A stretch of 64,000 bases of DNA from Raillietiella orientalis (Eukaryota), in assembly GCA_036172245.1 (NCBI GenBank), contig JAYWIR010000010.1, forward strand, positions 1 to 64,000. Reading direction: 5' to 3'. Below are positions 10,629 through 64,000 of this stretch, in pieces; the first letter of the stretch is position 1, and each line of letters starts with the position of its first letter. The notes beneath the pieces were generated by a model. The model did no database searches, was not told where the DNA came from, and saw only the letters and a list, made by a program, of their open reading frames with translations. A program made the translations under genes and the position numbers.

Positions 10629-11934
10629 ATGGCCAAAGGATGCAAAAAGAATCAGAACAGATACATGCAAAGGCGTATTCATCATTGATTCCAGGTATAC
10701 GAAAGTGTTCTTGAAACGTCAGTTACCATGAGTTTGTTCAATTGTTTTTGAAAATTATTTGATGGTGCTTTATGTTTGAGGTTCGTATTCGTGTAGTTAA
10801 GAAATTTGTATTCGTTAAGAAAGTGCTTCAGTTTTGGTTTATTTTATCATGTAAATTCCTCTCTAAATATTTATGTATGCCAGTGGGGCCTCAAACTAAA
10901 GTTGAATCACACGAAGCAAATATTGTGCGAATCAGGTCATGTCAACTGGGTTGTAACTTGAGTGAATTCAGCATTTCCTACTTAAGTGTGACCCTACATG
11001 TGGATGCATTTGTTGTAAAGTTTAAAGTTGCACTGAACTTTTCGCTCTTTTCTAATAGAATCACTCAGAATTTGAATTTGCCACGAAAAAAGTTGGAAGC
11101 ATTAATAAAAGCATTTGTTGCCTTTTATCAAGTGTAAGATTATTTCCCATTGGAAGTTTGCCTGGAGGATTTTTGTTTGATGCTCGTGTACCACATCAGA
11201 TTAATAATTAATTGTAATAAAAGCAGGCTGATGTTTTCTTAACTTCGGATTTCTGTATTGCAAGTTTGTTCCAGGAGTAAAGTTTGCAATTTGTTATTGT
11301 ATTAGCATCCCCTAAAGGTGGGAGTTGTGTTGCAACATTTTCCCTACTTGCCGCAGTTTTCAAATTGCATGCCTTGAAAATACTTTAATCCATAAGTGCA
11401 ACAGCCATTTTATAGTCATCAGTTGCGTTTTCAGGCACTTGATCAGCTGCCTGTTTTTATTATGAGTATGTGTATTCCAATTGTAACAGTGTAGCCAAGA
11501 CACTGTTTTATGTTTCTGCCCATGAAAGTGTATTCAACAGTGTTCATTCTGTTTGAGGTCAGCACGACTTGTTTCGCACCCTGATCGAAGACGTTCTGGC
11601 CTAGCTTTCATATACTGTGATAGCTTGATATCTGGTAGTCAGAAATCGCAAACCCAAATGTAAGTACTTTGGTGCTAAAATGGCAACTGTTAATTGTTTT
11701 GTAGCCTGGCATCCATAAAAAGTAAAACCTGCAAGAAGTGCCATTCATTTCTGCATCCTGGATTTTCCGCACAGTATAGATTGCGTTCAATCCATTGGGT
11801 TTGATTCATTGCAGAGTTCAAAGTTCATTGCTGTGTTCCAGCGCAAAGATAGAGGGCAAGTAAGAGCAGGTGAGTGAGAAGGTACAACCTGCAGCTTAAT
11901 AAGTAAAAGTGTGCACTCCGGCGTAGAAAGATGA
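10629..11934 (+). pseudogene. RPP21: Rpp21/Rpr2-family unprocessed pseudogene, copy B
   Basis: Exon 1 (10629-10694) reads MAKGCKKNQNRYMQRRIHH*FQ|gt (compare Rpp21 QRLNFLYQ), with TGA at 10686-10688. Exon 2 starts at 11559 after a non-canonical GG. The zinc-ribbon exon CKKC...LHPG follows. Confidence 0.75.
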
Positions 11935-34225: not shown

Positions 34226-36100
34226 GTGCAGTCCGTCGACATGCAACAGGCGATGCGCCATCGGAGGCTCACGCGCCAACGGTCGCTGTTTGCCTTATCG
34301 GGCACCATTGTCACAAAGGCGTCCTCTTCGCTGGAACCGCTTTCAGAACTCCTCCCAGGAGAAACTCTTGTGTTACTTGTAACGGGCATTTTTCATGCGG
34401 ATTTCGAGTCGGGGGACGCAGACAGTTTGGGGCTGGAGCAAGAAGGCTCCGTATCGAGTGCAGGGCATGCTCGCCTAATACCCGCAAGCTATTTGCGGAC
34501 GCGGAACTCGGCATCAAGGCACCTCCTCTTGAATTGCCTTGCGAGTGCAGGCCGAGAGGAACAATTCAGTAGGCGGTGCCTTGATATTGAGTGCCGCAGC
34601 TACAAACAGCTTGGCCGCCCCATAGTCGCTGCACACTTTGAGAACCACCACAAATCCATCCGATATGGACGTGTCTTCCGCCGACCTCCAGCTTATGGCA
34701 AATTTCCTGCCTATCGAACTAAACGCGCGCCGAAGCGAGCCAACTGTACACGCAGTAGAATCTTTTTGAAAAGGTTTCATTTTCGCCGAAGGGCGCGCAC
34801 AGATGCGTCGAGCCGCCTGCGACGCAAAGACATCGCGGTCGGACACACCGAACGCGATGCTTTTCAAATGGTGGACGAAATGAAAACAGCGATGGTAAAG
34901 GTGTCGAGACATCTACAACGCCACAGCAGCTCTCTCTTCTTTCTCTCTCGAACGTGCCGCTCTGGCCGTTGTCCAACCACTTTGCTAGCTCTCTGTACCT
35001 GAAATCCTACATCGGCCCTCCCGTTCCCCCGCCTGGCTACTGCCCAAGTGCTCCCTGTGGTAGTCCCGCCTGTGCTGGAAGGACCAGCTAGTGTTACGTG
35101 TCTTACGCAGCAGAGAAAAGCAGAATCAGAAGACTTTGGCGAGTCGGAAGGCGACTTTGGTGATGGAAAATCTGCGTGAGACGAACGAAGAACTCCTCCC
35201 AGCCTGGAAAAGAAGGAGGATGCCCAGTCATCGTTGATGGCCTTCTTCCTGTCGATGACATTTGGAAAGCGGGAACTTGCAGCTGGGGAACATCAACGGC
35301 CAGCCGTACAGGGATGACTGTATTTCCCCACAAATTGTGGGAACAAAGAGGAAAAGCGGTCGGCAAAAGACCAAATTCTTCAAACACAGACAAAAACTAG
35401 AAGTGAATGGAGTTTTGCACGTAAAGGTTGCAATGTGAAATTCAGTTGGTCAGTAACTTCACGCCAACGCTTGTTCGTACCTGGGAGGATTGCTCGAGTG
35501 ACAACACTGTCGCTACGAACAAAATGGGGCTTTCAGCTGTCTGGTGCCCATCGGTGAAGGAGAGAGCTGCAACTGCCACCACTATTGCCGAAATGAAAAA
35601 GTTACTTCAATTATTTGGAATTTTAGGTTGGAATACTGGTGGGGATGGACGAGTATTGGCTACTACTTGTCTTCAAAGGAAAGCGGAGCTCTCGAGTGCG
35701 CTGTGCGCATCCGCACGCGGAATTTTTCTTGCCCTGTCGAACTCGGTGAGCCTCACCGAGTCGATTTGCAATACTCGTGCATGCCGTGCATCAACGAACG
35801 TTTCTTGGAACAGGTGCTTGCAGAATGCAAAATGAGGTGCCTTTCAAGTTGAGTGTTGAGTGTCCCTTCACGGATGCGTTTCGCGAAACTCCAAGCATAG
35901 CATGCGCCAACGAACCGTGTCTTTGAGGCAAGCGCGCGTTCCACGCACCGATTCCCGTTGCTTAGCAAAGGAGATTTTTCCTGACGGAAGAATTTGCTGT
36001 GTGCTGCTTGCGAATTCGGTTGTCGGATCGACTCGCGCATTTCGTGGAAGAGGTCGCAACTCGGAGTATCGTACTGCTGCGTAATCCAGCGCTTATCTAC
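34226..36100 (+). mobile_element. Decayed Gypsy (Mag-like) gag-protease-RT
   Basis: The 258-aa ORF has AAHFENHHKSIRYGRVFRR...ANC...SRLRRKD...AFQMVDEMKTA, a Mag-type gag pattern. The knuckle/protease block shared with 3647-4440 follows, then VPRTDS..LAK..DGRICCVL, which resembles the start of RT. Confidence 0.5.
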
Positions 36101-48283: not shown

Positions 48284-51200
48284 CTAGTGCCTAAATGCTT
48301 CGTACACGTGTAAATCCGATGGTCGAATACGAGGCTGGACTCTCTTGAAGGCAGTCATGAAATGTCTCATTGCTGTAGTTTCACTGAGCATATCTTCCTC
48401 CAAGGCTGAGAGGCCCGCTTCATTACAAAGGGCTGTTATCTATTTCAAACGAGATTTAGGAAAAAAAAATAAAACCGAATGCATTCTACTTCAGCTCCAC
48501 TGAATTGTTCTGTCATTCGGACTAATTCTTTTACATCAACATCAGATGAAATCGGCATTTGACGAAATAATACTTGAAATATGCAATTTCTTGTAGCTTC
48601 ATCTGGAAGGGGTAAATAAATGAGGCGATCTAAACGACCCGGTCGTAACAGAGCCTAAAACTAGAATCATTAAAAAAAAAAAAAAAAAAATCAAGACAGT
48701 TCAAGCAACCTTATCGAGCATATCAGGTCTATTTGTTGCTGCAACTACAGTCACTTCACAAAGTGGCTGAATTCCATCCATTTCGGTTAGCAGCTGCGCC
48801 AAAACACGTTCACCAACTTTGCCATTACTTGCAGCACTTCGAGAAGTGGCTAATGCATCTATCTCATCGAAGAAAATTATAGAAGGTGCTGACTCTCGGG
48901 CTTTACGAAATACTTCACGAACCGCTCGTTCGGATTCTCCAACCCATTTGCTGAATAATTCAGGTCCCTGAAATCGAACGTCACATTGAAAAATATGGCA
49001 AAACATTACTTTTATTGAAATAAAATTTAATCCAGTTTCTGTTGCCAAAGCTTTGGCTATCATAGTTTTTGAGCAGCCAGGAGGGCCATACATAAGCACC
49101 CCTCGAGGAGCCTTCACACCCAACCGTTTAAAGGCGTCTGGATTAACGATGGGCCACACAACAGATTGCTGAAGTCTATGTTTGACATCTTCTCTTCCTC
49201 CAATATCAGACCAATGTACTCGAGGAACTTCCAGTAAAATTTCTTTGAGAGCACTGGGCCGAATTCGCTGTAATGCATGCTGCATATCTTCTGATGTTAA
49301 TTTACTCTGTTTATCATATTCACAGCGCTTCCACGCCATTAGAGCAGCTTCTTGAACTAATGCACTTAAATCTGCGGCCACAAAACCGTGTGTATCTCGT
49401 GCAACCATCTGTTTTTGAAAATCTGTAACATTATGAGGTATAGTTGTCAGTAAATAACTCAATAATTGCAATCGTTGTGGAGCACTGGGGACTGGTACTT
49501 CTATTTCTTTATCAAATCTACCAGGTTTTCTTAAAGATGGATTTACTTTCTCTAGGTTTGTTGCAGTCGCCAATAAAAAAATACTGAAGAAGCTATGACC
49601 TACTCCAAACATTTTAATTACTTACTTTGAATCTTGATCTAACTGATCAATTAAATAGATCAGCATCTTAATAACATGAGTGTGTAAAGAATGTTTTTCT
49701 TCATATGAGCATAACATGTCGATATTATCCCACAAAATAACACTGAAACTTGGTGCACTAAAAGATCAGTTATCATAGTATGCAATAAAGATTGAATATC
49801 GTTAGTATTGTCAATTCAGTATTCAACTTAGCTAAGTTGAATTACTTAACACAGTATTTCTTACATCATATAGCACACACTTTGTAACAGCTCAGAGCTC
49901 TAGAAAATATGTACATTCTTCTTTGAAATTTTTACGATCTTTAACAGACACTAACAGGTGCAAAGAAATATGAACTGTAAAGTACAAGGATTAGAAGTGC
50001 AGCCAAACAGACTTAAATGCTATATTTCGTAGCAAAACTTTACCTTTCAGCGGCCTTTTCGAAGATGTGGAGTACCTTCTGCTTTACATTGTCACCACAA
50101 CTATCACACAGTAAAGATTCTTCTATCTGAAAAACTCTAGGAAATTCCTGAGCCATGGTTTGTGCAATAAGAGTTTTTCCACATCCACTAGGACCAAACA
50201 GCAGAAGACCTCTTGGGACTAGCAGTCCTTTTACAAAATAGTTACATTTCAAAGATATGACAAAAAAGCATGTTTTTTTACACTCATTAAAGACACGTAC
50301 ACCAATAAACCTTTAACACTTGAAAAACTGGAAAATAAGAACTTGCTATCAAACAAGCTTCATTTGTAATTCGTAAATAATAAATTGAAAAAAATTTACC
50401 GTATTTCTTGGCTTTCTGCCGATTATACAGTACTACATTTAAGACATCTAGCAACTGTTCCATGACAATATTAGAAACATGAATATCTTTCAGGGTTTTA
50501 TGTGGTTTCTTCACAATTGCATCACCAGCAAGTGATTGAAAATTGATCTGCGTTTTTCTAGTCACCAAATAATAAACACCAACAAATGTATTCGACGATA
50601 ACTGCTTTGAATTTTCTGCAACAGTACGGTTTTTTTGTTTTTGAAATGGAGTTGATGTAATAAACAAATTATCGACTTCCAAGTTTTCCTTTTCTCCAAT
50701 TTCAGTTGTACTATCACTGCAAGAATAAGTGTCACTGAGAACAATCAAAGAGTCTCTGGAATCCAGGGGATCAGTTAGAGATAGTTGCTCAAACTCAATA
50801 TGAGCATCAAAGTTAGGCTCAAATTTAGTTATAAGCAATCTGTATTCTTCTCCAAAATAATCTAATATTATTTCATTGCCAAGGGCATATACATTTCCAC
50901 AAAGTTCATTGCAAATGTACTCTTGAAACTGACTATTCTTCTTGAATATGAGTTTCTTTGGAAATGATAAAAAAATTTTATTGGCCTCAGTGTAACCTTT
51001 CAAAGGTTGAATATAGATATCACATCCAATGGAAGAAGGAAATAATTTCTGTGCTGAAATAAACAAAATGGATTACTGTGTTCAAACGAGCGTTCATACA
51101 ACCTTTTTTAGAAAAATAAACATCAGTAAAATGCAAATCGGATGCAGGCCAGGCATGGAATACATAGACTTTTTCAACAAATTTAACACAGGCAAATTCT

Positions 51201-55900: not shown

Positions 55901-56133
55901 AATGGCAAGAAGGCATAAAGTAATCTGATTTTTCAAGGTACAATGGAAACACTACAATATCATTTGAATAAGAACAGCACTTTTGACTGAAAAACCATAA
56001 AAGTAAGAAAGAGTTGTGCTCTTCTATAATAATAAAATCCAACAACTAGTAAAGCTTGTTACCACAGGCACCACTGCCTAAAAGATAAAAAACAACATAT
56101 TTTATCAAAAACTTAGATTTAATAAAATATTAT

Positions 56134-59100
56134 TTATTTATTCAAAGAAGCACAACTGCTCATATCATACATGACCCAAAATGTCAAATTGATACGCTCT
56201 GCTTTTCCCACTGTAGGATCTTTAGGCACCTGGAAAATAAAAAATCAACAAAAATTCGAAAGAGCTTTAAAAACCTCATGCATCCAGTCTTCCTGAACTG
56301 CACCTTCCATTACTAATAAGCTTCCAGGGAATAAAGGAAATCGAATAAAAAGGGAACTACTTTCCTTACGAGCCAACTCAAAAACTCGTATAGCCCCTGA
56401 AACCAGAAATTTCTGAATCATCTAGTGTTATTGTTATTACCTAATGATACAGATGCAACAGGTGGACATCGCCCTAAGCCTTTATTGTCATCACAGTGCC
56501 AAGAGCAATAATCATGTCCACTTCGATATAAATTCAGGAAACAACAATTAAATTCGTGCCCTGTAAATTGATTCAACCTAAAAGATTTCTGCTTCAACAT
56601 GTATGAGAGATTTAATGCACCTGTGCAACAAATCAATAAGCTCTGGAGACCACTTGTCATTTTTTGGTAGCAGCATCCCACGATGCGAGTAATCACATGG
56701 TCCATACCAAGAAACAAGTCTACTTAAAGTATACCAAACACGGTTAAACACAATGCGTTTTTGTTGCCATTTGACACTTTGGCGAAGACATTTGAACATA
56801 CACTGAAGGAATAATACATGCATATTTGGAAATTATGACATCTCTGCTTACTGAATTTCCTTTGTCAGTAAGAAAACGAGGCCAGTAGCGCAACACAGCT
56901 CTTCCATTATGTGTTTCACTGATTACCAACTCTCCACCTTCTCGCACAAACCACTCAGGAACATTGATGCAAGGATTGACTGCTGGATCAGGTACTAAAG
57001 GAAGCTAAAGATGCATTACAATAGGAAACTTTTGAATATATCTTTTACTTCAGCTGGAACAACTGCCTCTGGGGAGCCAAGAGGACTGGCCAGTCCACTA
57101 TTAAGTCCATTAGGTGAATCCTTATGAGAAATAATATATTTTGATTTCCGACCCTCTAAATATTCTGAAGATGAAGAATGTCTACGCTTACGATGCCTAC
57201 GGGGCGGCTCTGTATCTCTTTCTTCACCTTCCTCTAAAGAATCATCTTCACGATGATGTCGATGAGATTCTATCCTGAGGGACATATTTTGCTCTTGGGA
57301 TATATATTTTTATGAAATGCGCTTACCTATCTTCTTTCTTTTTTCTAATTTCTTTATCTTTTTTTCTTTTTTTCTCTTTGCTTTTTTCTAAACTTTTTTT
57401 TCTTTTATCCTCACGATCTTTGTCTTTTTCTCTTTCCTTTTCTTTTTCTTTCACTTTTTCAACGAAATCCGCTTGAACACCAACATTTTTACGCCAATTG
57501 CGCTCCAACTTATCAGAAGGAGTCTGGAATTCAAGGTGCTCAAACTCTTCCAGAGCTTTACGATATTGATTTATATTTCCAAATTCTTCCAAGAAATCCA
57601 CACGGCGTCGAGCAAAAAACAATTTGTCAGCAGGCCGCAGTTCCTTGTTGACTAGAGCTAATTCAGTGGCAGCACAAAATCCTTGTATATCAACCGGATA
57701 ACGCTGATAGCAAACATCCAATACTTGCTGATAGAGTCTAGCATTGCTACGGTCTTTTTTCAATGCTTGCCGAAGAATGGAGAGAGCTTTTTCTGGCTTT
57801 CCTAACACCTGGAAGCAATACCAAGTGGTATGAAAACCAATATAGGAAATACCTTAAAAGCAAAACGGGCATACTTGATAGCAAACCAGGAGCGCAAGGA
57901 CTTAGAATTGGCTCCTTCAAAGTAATTTCGATACAATTCTGCTACTGCATCGTAGTTATTATTTCTACGTTCTAAATCAATACGCTGCATCCGCGGAAGT
58001 AGAAGTTCTGGAAACTGCTGCTCAACTTCAGTTATCAGTTCTCTTGCTCTGTCCAAATGATTCTGTTCTTCTTCAAATGCAGCCCACTGCAATCGAATGC
58101 ATGGTCGACGGGGGCAATGCACAATACATGCTCTTCTGTATACTTCTCTTACAGCTTCAAATGGATTCTTCTGAATTAAAGAGAAACCTGGACGAAGTCC
58201 ATCATTTTCCATTTGGACTGCCACACGGCACTCTAGCTCATGAAGTTTACACTTAGGAATGAAAACTTTTTTCTCATCTCCGTCCAGACCAATTTGTTCT
58301 TCTTCTTCATCGGGTACAGACATGTATTCACGAATACTTGCTGCAATACTTCCTTCAATGGGTTTTTCTTCCATCTCAGGCAAACTAAGCAAATCTCTTG
58401 CTTTCTGAAATAGCTGGATTTTTTCCTCATCGCTTATTTCATCAAGAGTAGTTGCAACATTTTGATCTGATTGGCATATCTCTCCTAGGGCATAAAGTTC
58501 CATATAACGAGCATAAAAGCACCAAAGTTCTTCATAAGCAGCACAGGCAATCAAGCATCGTTCAAATAATGTAACCACACGTTGATGGTTGCCTTCACTA
58601 ATCTCGAACTCTAAATATTCTCGCCAATTGCGCAACTGTTTCTGATCCAATGGCTTCATGTGGAAATATGGTCTCTTAATCTACAGGAATTGTTTTATGA
58701 TTTTATCATCATATATTTACATAAATACCCTCTCTTCAAACTTCCAGCGCAACTCCACATCTCTTTCAGTGCGTTCATGAATGCGAAGAACACCTACTAT
58801 CACTTTTTCCTTCATAATACTGGTCAGTCTTCGATCAGATTTGGTACCCATAAGGATATCTGATGAGGACAAATTCAAATCTTGAAGTGTTTCTGAACAC
58901 AGCATATTGTATTCTTCCTCACTCAAAATGTCTTTAAGTTCATTATTATGCAAATGTTGCAAAAAACTGTAAATGCATTAGCTTATAATTAACCATTAGT
59001 TGCTTACTTATCCCAATGCTTGTTGCACAGTTTGGTGGGTGTGCTCAGCACCTTGCGGTATACTGATGTTATGTTGACCAAATTGTTATTCTGAACTTCC

Positions 59101-60836
59101 CATTCTAAATAAGCTTCCCATAAGGGATCAGAACGAAATTCTAATCCAGCTGTAGCAATAGCCCTTTCACATTGTCTTGTAAAGAAAACATGAACAAATT
59201 ACGATATTGTTGCAAAAAGGATTACTTGCGCATTAGTTGCTCCGCATTCTCAGTATCACGATGCATCTCCCAAAATAAATTCAAATATGCCAGCCACAGA
59301 TCAATTGAAAGTGGGATTGCTTCTAAGCCACGCTCCAAAATCTGTAAAGATCGTTCAGTATGGCCAAATTTTTTTTCCAATTCACTATAGCGTTTCCAAT
59401 AGGCATAGCAATAAGGATATAAAGGCAAAAATGCGTTGAATACACCTCGACATGCCTCTACATTTTCCTGTAATATATTTCAAAACAAATATGAACAAAG
59501 CATATTTGAACAAACCAATGTTTCCACATGGTTCAGAAGCAACGTCCAACCACCAAAATTATATGGATTTTCTTTTACAAAATTCCAGTATTGATCTAAA
59601 ATAATTCTCTGCTGTCCCTGATATTCAGGATGATCAGGAGGATAAGGATTTTGTAACAGTGATGGGCCAGCCTCAAGAAGCTGGTCATCAAAGGGATCCA
59701 CAGATTCCTGAATTGCTTCTTCCCGCACCATTTGTGGAACAGGATACCGATATGGTGCTGGTTGATCTTCTCTTCCAGGAAACATAATCTGAGGAGGAGG
59801 CATCCTTAAAAAAGCTGGTGTTATATCGTTTGGATCACAAAATGGCGGTGGTGCTGGTGGTCGATAATATGCAGTGAAAGCTGGCATGTTGACACCATAT
59901 GGATAGGTAACTGCATTAGGGGCTTCTTTAGAGATATTCTCTTGTATTTTTGACATTTTATGAAGTTCTTTTAATTCAGGTGATTTCTCCTTGGACTTTT
60001 TACTCTTCTTTTTCTTCCTTTTTTTCCCATCTTCAAGCTCATCATCTTTACATTTTGTTCTATCTTTTTCTTTTTTTGCTTTAGTTTTTGAATGAACTGG
60101 CTCACCTAATCAATGTAAGTTTAAGCATCAATATTTTGTCACTAATAGCATCTGCATACCCGATCCTTCATAAAATGAAGCGATGCTACTATATGTTGTG
60201 TTGGTAGTAGTATATCTCATGTTTTCTGATTCATTACCCACATAATTATGATTAGGTGAAGTTTCATTTTGGTCCAATTGATTAGAATGCAAACTTGGGG
60301 GCTTGACAGGAACAGATAAAATTGGAGGAGGATACGTCCCTGATCCTGAAGTGGATCCCAAAAAATTTGGTGGTGGTGTATTGATAAGCATTGGAAGGGG
60401 TGGGCCAGACTGCATTGTTGGAGGAGGAATATTTGGTAAATTTGGTGGGGGTCCATTCTGCAGAGCTACTGGAATTGATTTCATCTGAGAGGGAATTATT
60501 GGTGGCAAACTTTGGTAACCAGAAGAATACGCTGTTCCTCTCACTGGAGCACCATAAGGACCTCTTGGGCCAAGGTTTGGAAATTGTTGTCCCATGTATG
60601 GTGCTTGACTTGAAAACTGCATTGGACTAGGAGCAAATTGATCTCGTGAACCAAAAGGGTTGGGATGAGCAGACGGGAAGTTTTGATTAGGATATGGGTT
60701 GGCTGGATTGTAGTTCTGTGGGGGTCTAAGTGGAAACTGTCCCAAGTTTGGAGTCCCCTAAGAAAGACAAGGCAATACACAATTCACTAACATTTCAGAT
60801 TCCTACCCCATAGCCATATGTAGGGGCAACAGACAT
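56134..60836 (-). CDS. PRPF39: PRP39 (U1 snRNP HAT-repeat protein) fused to a C-terminal AlkB/ALKBH3-like 2OG-Fe(II) dioxygenase; 14 exons, roughly 1,350 aa
   Basis: PRP39 motifs: YPYCYAYWKRY, AIPLSIDLW, AGLEFRSDPLW, FEERIKRPYFHMKPLD..QLRNWREYLEFE, LFERCLIACA and FLEEFG. AlkB motifs: SRLVSWYG, NLYRSGHDYCSWHCDD, VASVSLGAIRVFEL, GSLLVMEGAVQEDWMHEVPK and RINLTF. All 13 introns are GT-AG, short and frame-preserving. An in-frame TAA precedes the ATG at 60836. The 3' end may use an extra exon near 56078. Confidence 0.88.
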
Positions 60837-63800
60837 GATCGGAAATTCTTACTTTGAAGTGAAGAATTGATGATGGTTTTTTGTGAAAAGTGTTGGGCAA
60901 CTAGAAATTAAAAAACATGCAATTTGCAAAAAAAAAAAACTTGACTTTCCAGAAATATCATATATTTTTGGAAGATTGGTTGACAATTCTGGGATTTAAC
61001 GTTAAGCATACTTTAGTTTACATTTATAAGCAAGCACACAAGTTGGTAATCCATATGCAATCTCTAACATTCTAAAATTACTGGTCAAAAATCTACAAAT
61101 AGCTCATTTAAAACAGCTCTTAAATTTAAAATCTTTCTTTATTGAGATGATAATACCTTTCTCAAAAATTTTTTTGCTGAAAAAGATAACTTCCATGCTC
61201 AGCATGAACAAATTTGCAAACATTGTTCAGATGTTATCTAGTATTAACGTATAATCAAGAATATACAATTGTGAAATCTAAAAAATTATCAAAGCTGAAA
61301 ACAGTCTTAATTACTCAACTTCTATCATCAAGTCCCAACAAAATCTTAATGAAAAAAGTAGAAAAACTATATAAAATAAATTTTAACACTTCAATTTACA
61401 ATAATACAACACTACAGAAAACATTAGTAAAATTGCTAGCTTGTATTCAAAAACCAGCTGCAGGTAAACTATCAAACTGGAATTCAAGATAATTTAACTA
61501 AAAATTATTGGACTTTAAAAATGATTTCAGAAACAGAAAGGTTCATATGTGAATCATATTTGTTGTACTTTAAAGTTGTTTTTCTTTGCCCTTCCCATTT
61601 TATATAACCAAGGATTAACTTCTGCAAATCACTAAGTTCAAACTGCCTTAAGAATAAAAATAAAAATCATTTTTTAGAAAATAAGATAATACAGAACTAG
61701 TTAAATTAAATATAACTTCTTCATTTCTATTGGCTGTATCAAAAAACAGTTCATTTTATTATACAGACTTCTGCTGACAACATAAACTCAAATTTAAAGC
61801 TTTAATATCTTATATAACTCTTCTGCTTGATACAATTTATTATGCTCATGGCATATGAATTTTCTTCCTTGATCATTAAACTGAAACATCAAAATTCTGA
61901 GTGTAGCTGAAAAATGTACACATGGCTTACAATTTCACTGATTTTAATGCAAAAAAAAACCATCCATATCACAACACGAAATTTAACATGCACACATGAT
62001 AATATATACTAATCCATCAGGACACACAAGATATAAATAATCGTAACAAAAGACCAATTAATATTTCTAATCAATACAACTCCAAAATAAAAGCTCTTAC
62101 AACAAACCTAAGATTTCTAATTTGAAATTAAGACTTTTTTCGGAGATTTTAAAAAACCTTCTACTATTTTCTTTTTTTTGCAAACTGATAAGTTCCAATG
62201 CAGTGGAGAATTTTAAACTTAAGAAACCAACACAAATACATTTGAAGTTCCCCTCCCTCTCTCCCAAAGGTCACATGATTTCACACATACTCACAGATTA
62301 AGAAACACATTTGATCAAAATGCCCAACACATGAAACAATACCAGAGCACACTGGTTTTATTTCAAATATTCATATGAATTCATTCTGGAAAAACAATTT
62401 AATAATCACTCTGAAAACTGCTTTTAAAAAATGTAGAAAACTCAAAATATTTGAAGAACTTTCTAATATACATTCATATTTTGTAGCTTTCAACAACACA
62501 CTGAATTACTAGTAAAGACTGAATATTTGTCCAATGGTATGGTGCAAGCCACTTGTGCATGTATGTACTGCACAAACATGATTGAATCACATACCTTAAA
62601 TGAAGTGATAACCGGAAAAAAATTCACAATAGAAACCCATTTCATTACTTTTAAATAACATTACAAAACAAGTTTCAACATTTCCACAAAAATATACACT
62701 CAAAACCCGGCAAATTCTTACTAGAACACTGTGAAAAAGAAGGATCAAGTGAATTCAATACTAACTACTAATAGCAACAAGTTACTCTTTTTACAACAAG
62801 CATACATGTGATTCAAATTAATGATCAAGAAAAAAGTTTCACTAATAAAGTATTTCTTTGATGTTTTGCACAAAAATTTTATAAAATAATAGGCCAAAAG
62901 TTTTATAAAATTATGTGTTCACCAAGTTTAAAATGATTTCTACATGAGTACTGTTTGCAAAGCAGCCAGTATGATCTGTTATGACTTGTACTTCAAGATT
63001 TCACAAAAACTATTTCAAATTGGCTAATTTTTTTTTCATCCACAAACTAAGTTTAGAAACTTATATGATCAATCAGATATCAAATGCCCTTAAAAACTTA
63101 ACATGTTAAATAAATCAGTATCTTCAAATTACATCCAGTGTGACTTTTCAAATGAACAACACTGAATTCACAACTTTGGAAATACAGTGTACATTGGAAA
63201 TTTGTTGTCCTTTAATTTTTAGCTTTATCCAAATCATGTAAAACAATGAATCAATTGTGATTAAAAAAAAACAGCACAAAATGACTTTAAGTTATCCACG
63301 CTTAGTGAAAATTAAAGTATTAAGCTGATGAAGATGACTGCTTCTTATCCAGAAAAATCAGCATCTTACTTAGAAATTACCCAATTTGTTATTAAATTCA
63401 TAAATTCAAATCGATTATTTCTCCTATTTGAGAAATTCTTTTGTTAATAAAACAAATCTAATTTCTGTAATGGCTCTGTTGAATAGGAAATAAGCATACA
63501 CAACTTAGCAATAAAACTACAAATTAGGAAGAGCCTCTTTTGAAAATTCAAGGATTACATAATAATTTATTGGACAACAAAAAGATATAAAACTTCTGAC
63601 ACAATGCACAAATTAGAGCATACAATAAGAAACCAAAATTTTAATAACTTGCTACTACTTGGAATATCATCAGGAAAACCTTTTGGGGAAATGTTAAAAT
63701 AACAAAGGGATGAATAATATTTGGAAAGCAACACAGCAGAATGCACTATGCATTTCAAGTACACTGGATTACTAAACAATTAACCACATTCTTTAATGAC

Positions 63801-64000
63801 CAGCAATTATGGGTACTATTTACTATACAGACACAATTGCATCAAGCAAAAAGATATGCTACTTCCATCAACACCCCCAAAACACAGATGGATCTTAATA
63901 ACAGAATTCCATACAACATTAAACTGAGTTGTATGTAAATGGCTTAATTAAAATCATAAGATACAAGATTCTGCAAGTTAAAATGATGAGAAAAGAATCA

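Follow-up and report, generated by a model that had tools for sequence, protein, structure and literature searches.

The stretch of DNA considered here (the window) comprises positions 1 to 64,000 of contig JAYWIR010000010.1 from Raillietiella orientalis (assembly GCA_036172245.1). Between positions 60836 and 56134 of its minus strand lies a coding region in which HAT repeats of the PRP39 type are followed by an AlkB domain of the 2-oxoglutarate (2OG)-Fe(II) oxygenase class. Judging from the sequence, we consider it highly probable that this is a single gene giving rise to a single protein, in which the HAT region of a PRP39 paralog and an AlkB domain of the ALKBH3 kind are connected by a short charged linker. 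The case for such a fusion rests on relatives of the protein and on local sequence signals.

The whole coding span (56134..60836) extends from an ATG at 60836-60834 to a TAA at 56136-56134 and was modelled with 14 exons, which after splicing give a 4092-nt frame of 1363 codons plus the TAA, with zero internal stops. Exons 1 to 5 occupy positions 60836-60807, 60757-60160, 60105-59516, 59467-59226, and 59175-59008; exons 6 to 10 positions 58966-58729, 58680-57853, 57808-57327, 57274-57049, and 57004-56852; and exons 11 to 14 positions 56802-56621, 56577-56441, 56396-56275, and 56229-56134. All 13 introns are of the GT...AG type and 41-54 nt long. The GC content was 0.37-0.50 for exons, 0.21-0.36 for introns, and 0.28 for the 2-kb flanks on each side. 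The critical junction is the 52-nt intron at 57275..57326. It opens with a GTAAGC donor, as do two further introns of the gene, and closes with a pyrimidine-rich CAG acceptor. A second intron of 44 nt (57005..57048, GTAAAA...TAG) separates the linker exon from the first AlkB exon. One codon is split between exon 8, with two of its bases, and exon 9, with the last; since exon 9 then closes in phase 0, matching the opening of exon 10, the frame is kept only when exon 9 is included. A preliminary description of this DNA had claimed a stop-free passage from the PRP39 HAT region into the AlkB part, across introns of 52 and 44 nt and without intergenic space. The spliced model, together with the Pfam and ALKBH3 matches given below, bears out the continuous frame; the intron coordinates proved exact, and there is indeed no intergenic space between the two parts.

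At the 3' end, three hexamers resembling poly(A) signals (AATAAA at 56142 and 56138, ATTAAA at 56123; 56118..56142) are found at or just past the final stop. At the 5' end, an in-frame stop is located five codons upstream of the ATG at 60836. The minus strand was searched for QG..L..SFV.P, an N-terminal motif of fused relatives, by tblastn with the N-termini of nine of these proteins and by a motif scan of 60701-64000. No copy was found, and the ATG at 60836 was therefore retained as the start. Residues 1-10 of the window protein (MSVAPTYGYG, 60807-60836) resemble a YGYG stretch that follows the N-terminal motif in barnacle and springtail proteins.

Pfam and structure searches were made with translations of single exons and with database relatives rather than with the joined protein. 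Exons 2 and 3 (59516..60757) encode a low-complexity N-terminal region, rich in P, Q, and N and also in K, at the end of which the HAT repeats start; the HAT_PRP39_N match opens at residues 170-195 of exon 3. The N-terminal HAT repeats of the PRP39 type continue through exons 4 and 5 (59008..59467), which matched HAT_PRP39_N (PF23240) with 89.8 and 61.1 bits, respectively (cutoff 27.7). The C-terminal HAT repeats are encoded by exon 7 and the start of exon 8 (57540..58680), include a lineage-variable acidic insert, and are likewise of the PRP39 type, exon 7 matching HAT_PRP39_C (PF23241) with 160.9 bits (cutoff 33). This segment corresponds to the dimerising HAT-CTD described for mouse PRPF39 (PMC6582350). 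Sequence and alignment place a K/E-rich linker at the end of exon 8 (57327..57539). It is continued by the R/H/S-rich exon 9 (57049..57274; phase 2+1 in, 0 out), which has no Pfam match and bears SKYIISHK, a weak remnant of the family linker motif Y-[IV]-x-PP-[KR]. A BLASTP comparison of the linker (model residues 1001-1150) with 147 collected proteins gave no match at 1e-3.

The AlkB domain is encoded by exons 10 to 14 (56134..57004) and was recognised from Pfam, from matches to ALKBH3, and from relatives. Two short exons matched 2OG-FeII_Oxy_2 (PF13532) with 28.7 and 17.7 bits, each below the cutoff of 31.2 when taken alone. The assignment of the PF13532 fold is backed by copepod fused proteins that carry this domain, to which the window domain is 60-64% identical over 214-224 aa (E ~1e-100). 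The best solved relatives of exons 11 and 12 were human ALKBH3 chains (E = 1.2e-4 and 3.7e-10). Exon 12 is nearer to ALKBH3 than to ALKBH2 (3.7e-10 versus 1.5e-4), as is the relative P0017 (6.8e-41 versus 6.6e-20). Ahead of the domain stands PCINVPEWFVREGGEL (56927..56974), the window's version of a family-specific motif, PC[VI]NVPEWF..GGEL, with nearly invariant columns, which is common to the fused proteins of copepods, barnacles, decapods, amphipods, and Collembola.

Eight catalytic positions were mapped onto the domain by means of ALKBH3 alignments; their roles as Fe and 2OG ligands follow the AlkB literature. The first two Fe(II) ligands form an intact HxD motif, H-C-D (CAC TGT GAT, 56490..56498), which aligns with WHSDD of ALKBH3, and the third Fe(II) ligand, a His (CAT, 56278..56280), is also intact by alignment. 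The 2OG-binding motif RxNxTxR reads RINLTFW (56176..56196), with the first Arg (CGT, 56196-56194) and the Asn kept. Altogether the window protein retains seven of the eight scored positions, namely H, D, H, the first Arg, and the residues of NxY and RxN.

Relatives with the same architecture were collected with the AlkB domain of a copepod protein (P0005) as query and with targets limited to 872-2778 aa. This search returned 33 proteins, 29 of which combine PF23240, PF23241, and PF13532. The other four, without PF13532, are truncated forms that still carry the HAT-linker-AlkB N-terminus in one frame, followed by unrelated tails. Among longer proteins, eight of the 120 PRP39 relatives listed for exon 7 also bear PF13532. 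The named fused proteins belong to (i) the copepods Eurytemora carolleeae, Tigriopus californicus, and Lepeophtheirus salmonis; (ii) the ostracods Cyprideis torosa and, from the exon 7 search, Notodromas monacha; (iii) the barnacles Amphibalanus amphitrite and Pollicipes pollicipes; (iv) the decapods Procambarus, Cherax, Palaemon, Halocaridina, and Panulirus; (v) the amphipods Hyalella, Trinorchestia, and Hirondellea; and (vi) the Collembola, with two Orchesella species. With 16 named species from the AlkB search and one from the exon 7 search, this amounts to 17, all of them pancrustacean. None of the 33 proteins of the AlkB search came from insects, branchiopods, Remipedia, Myriapoda, or basal hexapods.

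In some unnamed members, the open reading frame (ORF) nearly fills its contig; examples are frames of 1587, 1537, and 1235 aa on contigs of 4868, 4780, and 4082 nt, respectively. Such contigs have no space for introns or an intergenic gap and point to a spliced transcript or an intronless gene in those animals. The window protein shares its domain order, its pre-AlkB motif, and its place in the HAT tree with the pancrustacean fused proteins of Eurytemora (P0124), Tigriopus (P0128), Lepeophtheirus ('PRPF39', P0132), Cyprideis (P0001), Amphibalanus (P0006), Procambarus (P0134), Hyalella (P0140), and Orchesella (P0004), among others. It differs from them in its linker and N-terminus, as taken up below. 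Identity between the window protein and fused members was 40-57% in the HAT part and 49-64% in the AlkB part (57% for Cyprideis). No listed protein was nearer than 64% (AlkB part) or 57% (HAT part), which indicates that the lineage of the window is not represented among the matches.

In public annotation, fused proteins are labeled 'PRPF39', 'Pre-mRNA-processing factor 39', or 'AlkB-like'. The preliminary description had left open whether the architecture is already annotated in related invertebrates, and its presence in the 17 named species settles this point. Going by these comparisons, the architecture is not new to databases, and the window gene is a further member of the family, from a lineage outside the matches. 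A search for stand-alone ALKBH3 in shorter proteins (745 candidates) returned, among the best 120 of 395 matches, mostly unnamed fragments of fused genes, together with one partial krill protein and 'AlkB' metagenome proteins of about 200 aa, with 41-46% identity.

A few records in these collections deserve separate mention. The proteins P0144-P0147 and P0008 were considered as natural HAT-only isoforms and rejected, as they break at differing points of the AlkB part and continue into unrelated tails. The fused protein of Lepeophtheirus (P0132) also carries PF05485, two unnamed copepod-type forms (P0144 and P0147) also carry PF02037, and one Amphibalanus record (P0428) joins canonical PRP39 to endonuclease G under two names; these extra domains may be real fusions or merged gene models. 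A HAT-only protein of 594 aa (P0002) and an AlkB-only protein of 215 aa (P0197) come from the same source type and are each listed with 7527 nt as the length of the longest contig. Possibly a single fused gene was split between them by separate gene calls on one genomic contig.

To place the HAT region, trees were calculated with the quick search of IQ-TREE from 632 and 648 alignment columns. The fused proteins and the window protein formed one branch (SH-aLRT 100) with a stem of 0.67-0.86 changes per site, and within this clade the window protein adjoined the ostracod Cyprideis (support 93-94), a position suggestive of a crustacean lineage close to ostracods. The window protein thus grouped with PRP39 proteins, in a separate long-branch clade outside the canonical pancrustacean one. 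A HMMER search with the canonical PRP39 of Orchesella dallaii (P0114) provided 150 representatives for a 150-row FastTree. Here, a canonical arthropod PRP39 clade (support 99, 45 of the 150 rows) held P0293, P0280, P0282, and P0297, whose cluster names are, in this order, Amphibalanus amphitrite 'pre-mRNA-processing factor 39-like', Tk07494, Portunus and Scylla, and Hirondellea gigas. In a 34-row IQ-TREE, the canonical crustacean copies joined those of insects and the canonical Orchesella copy (support 98), apart from the fused clade.

Canonical PRP39 and the fused paralog are both present in Amphibalanus, Hirondellea, and Orchesella dallaii. By these trees, the window gene is not the sole PRP39 but a second, divergent paralog, and the fused family is, among the named matches, confined to Pancrustacea and coexists with canonical PRP39. 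The preliminary description had called the protein a U1 scaffold of the PRP39 kind. Its membership in the PRP39 HAT family stands, but it is a long-branch second paralog instead of the canonical copy. The existence of a separate PRP39 gene, which the same description had raised, was found in relatives, namely the three species just named. The fused and canonical pancrustacean clades were sisters in one HAT tree (support 95) but formed an open fork in the 34-row IQ-TREE, and a long-branch flatworm PRP39 attached to the fused clade in the 150-row FastTree and the 34-row IQ-TREE. Given these conflicting placements, we do not claim a date for the duplication.

For a survey of the catalytic residues, 32 AlkB domains were aligned, comprising that of the window and those of 31 relatives; two of the 33 relatives had been dropped since the motif used for cutting was absent. 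The HxD...H triad is intact in 18 of the 32 rows: the window, Cyprideis, both Orchesella, and 14 copepod-type rows. All eight scored positions are kept in 13 copepod-type rows, which suggests that catalysis is probably ancestral in the family, and it may persist in the window copy. Other lineages have lost ligands in various ways. In Notodromas, the triad reads R, E, H, with H, D, and both Arg lost. Three barnacle rows have HxH, along with SxF replacing NxY, and one unnamed barnacle-like row has HxE. None of the nine malacostracan rows has the first His, which is substituted by M, T, N, S, or Q, and Orchesella lacks the first Arg. The AlkB domain and the PC[VI]NVPEWF..GGEL motif stay conserved even where catalysis must be gone. 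As the domain is retained although catalytic residues were lost repeatedly, the family forms a natural gradation between active enzyme and pseudo-enzyme in which the role of the domain can be studied.

ALKBH3 acts on 1-methyladenine (m1A) and 3-methylcytosine (m3C) in single-stranded DNA and RNA. Both modifications block Watson-Crick pairing, which U1 small nuclear RNA (snRNA) needs for recognition of the 5' splice site. As a proxy for PRPF39-like behavior of the HAT part, a HAT-CTD complex was modelled from barnacle proteins, with residues 540-900 of the fused P0006 and residues 225-525 of the canonical PRP39 P0293. The pair scored 0.72 versus 0.00 for the best of three controls, contacts agreed to at least 64% between runs, and the pLDDT of the partner was at least 74. 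In calibration, the score mark was attained by 51 of 78 solved complexes and by 2 of 108 mismatched pairs. Since a like complex has already been solved (the mouse PRPF39 homodimer and yeast Prp39/Prp42), the modelled pass speaks for retention of a PRPF39-like surface, not for binding. Among the modelled contacts are two conserved helices, FxEEFG and KxARFxFK, and the window protein keeps both.

In the mechanism that we propose, the HAT-CTD would keep the PRPF39-type dimer surface, and the fused protein would pair with itself or with canonical PRP39 on the U1 small nuclear ribonucleoprotein (snRNP), akin to yeast Prp42-Prp39. The AlkB domain would then sit by single-stranded pre-mRNA where 5' splice sites are located. 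With all catalytic residues in place, as in copepods, Cyprideis, and possibly the window species, it would strip m1A/m3C-type methyls that block base pairing; where residues are lost, as in malacostracans and barnacles, it would be a non-catalytic module for binding single strands. We put this chain as a whole, from HAT-CTD pairing to AlkB action at 5' splice sites, forward tentatively, with chances clearly short of even. A more specific version is that a Prp42-like PRP39 subunit with its own ALKBH3 domain clears m1A/m3C at 5' splice sites or at the 5' end of U1 snRNA, or senses them if the domain is dead, and thereby couples ALKBH3-type repair to splice-site recognition. This version we regard as quite unlikely. 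If true, the fusion would be a Rosetta-stone sign of a functional coupling, general to animals, between RNA repair of the ALKBH3 type and recognition of the 5' splice site, and would account for the link of human ASCC-ALKBH3 to the U1 machinery.

Several observations weigh against an intact fused protein with an active AlkB enzyme at the U1 snRNP. (i) If the 52-nt intron stays unspliced, its donor AG|GTAA creates an in-frame TAA at 57325-57323. The same intron contains an ATG at 57285-57283, 37 nt past the TAA and in frame with exon 9 (MSLRIES...), which contradicts the earlier statement that the AlkB part has no ATG of its own. From the sequence, a PRP39-only and an AlkB-only product are thus formally possible. 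(ii) The linker of the window protein is much shorter than that of its relatives and lacks the motif VPPTWE..YGYG..EY..LE..GY, which is likewise absent in Notodromas, and the N-terminal motif common to most fused relatives is missing as well. (iii) The second conserved Arg of RxNxTxR is a Trp in the window (TGG, 56178-56176), leaving one of the two Arg residues. (iv) In the family, the triad is broken in 14 of the 32 rows, so that a demethylase role cannot be general, and demethylase activity appears doubtful as a family-wide function and uncertain for the window copy. (v) The long stem of the fused clade allows for a loss of canonical U1 functions. (vi) The complex model used barnacle proteins as a proxy for the protein of the window.

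One alternative accepts the fused protein and takes its AlkB domain to be non-enzymatic in the window species, where it would bind single strands or modified bases or be purely structural. In its favor, the Trp occupies the position of a residue that contacts 2OG in AlkB enzymes. Ligands are also lost in all nine malacostracan rows, in barnacles (HxH with SxF), and in Notodromas, in each case with the domain still conserved, and in malacostracans and barnacles the domain is most likely non-catalytic. On the other hand, the window copy keeps seven of eight scored positions and 13 copepod-type rows keep all eight, and the Trp codon TGG is one base from an Arg codon and could reflect a polymorphism or a sequencing error. 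On balance, we give the non-enzymatic alternative not quite even chances. The designation as a nucleic-acid demethylase domain in the preliminary description holds for the ALKBH3-like character and the intact triad of the window copy, but not for the family, nor for the second Arg of the window copy.

Regulated retention of the 52-nt intron would yield a HAT-only paralog besides the full fusion, and would be an addition to the single fused gene, not a replacement for it. The protein would then end exactly past the K/E linker. In mouse, PRPF39 levels are described as being tuned through an alternative exon (PMC6582350). The truncated relatives, which break at varied points of the AlkB part, look like read-through of gene callers into introns and not like a conserved isoform, and we consider such regulation rather unlikely.

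A stronger departure from the single fused gene would be two cistrons at this locus, with PRP39 ending at the TAA at 57325-57323 and a separate AlkB gene starting at the ATG at 57285, through gene fission or as a trans-spliced, operon-like pair. Both codons exist, 37 nt apart, an AG located 9 nt upstream of the ATG could in principle serve as a trans-splice acceptor, and the short linker without the conserved motif would fit a separation. Yet the intervening 52 nt have a strong donor, a pyrimidine-rich acceptor, and a size within the range of the other 12 introns, and the TAA inside AG|GTAA is a by-product of the donor consensus. On the gene strand, neither AATAAA nor ATTAAA occurs from 59975 to 56616, which leaves about 700 nt past the would-be PRP39 stop without a poly(A) hexamer. 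Every relative that was examined reads through in one frame. Moreover, the gene is bordered on both sides by more than 2 kb of DNA with 28% GC, and a spacer of 37 nt between independent genes would be out of character given these kilobases of AT-rich flank. Two cistrons are, in our judgment, very unlikely. That the database fusions are artefacts, in which predictors merged neighboring PRP39 and AlkB genes, is scarcely credible: many named entries are automatic predictions, but unbroken ORFs of 1235-1655 aa occupy contigs that exceed them by no more than 100 to about 1500 nt, and six pancrustacean groups show the architecture, along with a conserved linker and a pre-AlkB motif foreign to both parent families.

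An Rfam search over the whole window gave no match at gathering thresholds, and with it no spliced-leader or other RNA clue. The remainder of the window contains two further features. Positions 1 to about 26000 are taken up by a tandem GC-rich unit (GC about 0.50-0.56) of about 10.95 kb, with three copies that are 93-100% identical at a spacing of 10914-10962, and with partial copies near 34966-35748. Its ORFs span 170-270 aa, and the five that were tested had no Pfam match. As the unit also had no Rfam match, it is not rDNA. At 48701-49621 on the minus strand, a 306-aa open frame carries an AAA ATPase domain (PF00004, E = 1.6e-40) and an AAA lid. Its sequence suggests that it is probably an exon of a gene for an ATPase with two AAA domains, located downstream of the PRP39-AlkB gene.

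Among titles and abstracts, with few subscription journals covered, we found no paper describing a PRP39-AlkB fusion or a second pancrustacean PRP39 paralog, and none linking ALKBH3 with PRPF39. That copepods, ostracods, barnacles, malacostracans, and springtails have all conserved the fusion is a strong evolutionary argument for the usefulness of an AlkB-type domain beside a U1-type scaffold.

The known proteins closest to the HAT part are PRPF39, Prp39, and Prp42. Both HAT domains of the window protein are matched by PRP39-specific Pfam models, the relative P0017 matches the structure of mouse PRPF39 (6G70, E = 4.1e-48), and the motifs of the HAT-CTD dimer surface of PRPF39 are kept in the fused protein. 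As a second paralog beside a canonical copy, the fused protein resembles yeast Prp42. It differs from all three in its C-terminal AlkB domain, its long low-complexity regions, and its long stem branch. PRPF39 is described as dimerising via concave HAT-CTD surfaces, and metazoans as lacking a Prp42 ortholog and using the homodimer instead (PMC6582350); the text of that paper makes no mention of arthropods, crustaceans, paralogs, or AlkB. The retention of two paralogs in the animals studied here contradicts a simple picture of metazoans with a single PRPF39 homodimer.

For the AlkB part, the best solved relative is human ALKBH3 (2IUW, 8JNR, and others), with which NLY, WHxD, DW.H, and R.NLTF align. 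ALKBH3 itself stands alone, with a length of about 286 aa. Here, in contrast, the AlkB domain is the C-terminal part of a HAT protein of 1363 aa, follows the family-specific PC[VI]NVPEWF motif, and has, in the window, a Trp in place of the last Arg of RxNxTxR. Human factors associated with ALKBH3 meet the U1 snRNP, which provides a non-covalent precedent in which contact is made indirectly, by way of other proteins. In the family described here, unlike the human case, the AlkB domain and the PRP39 paralog share one covalent chain.

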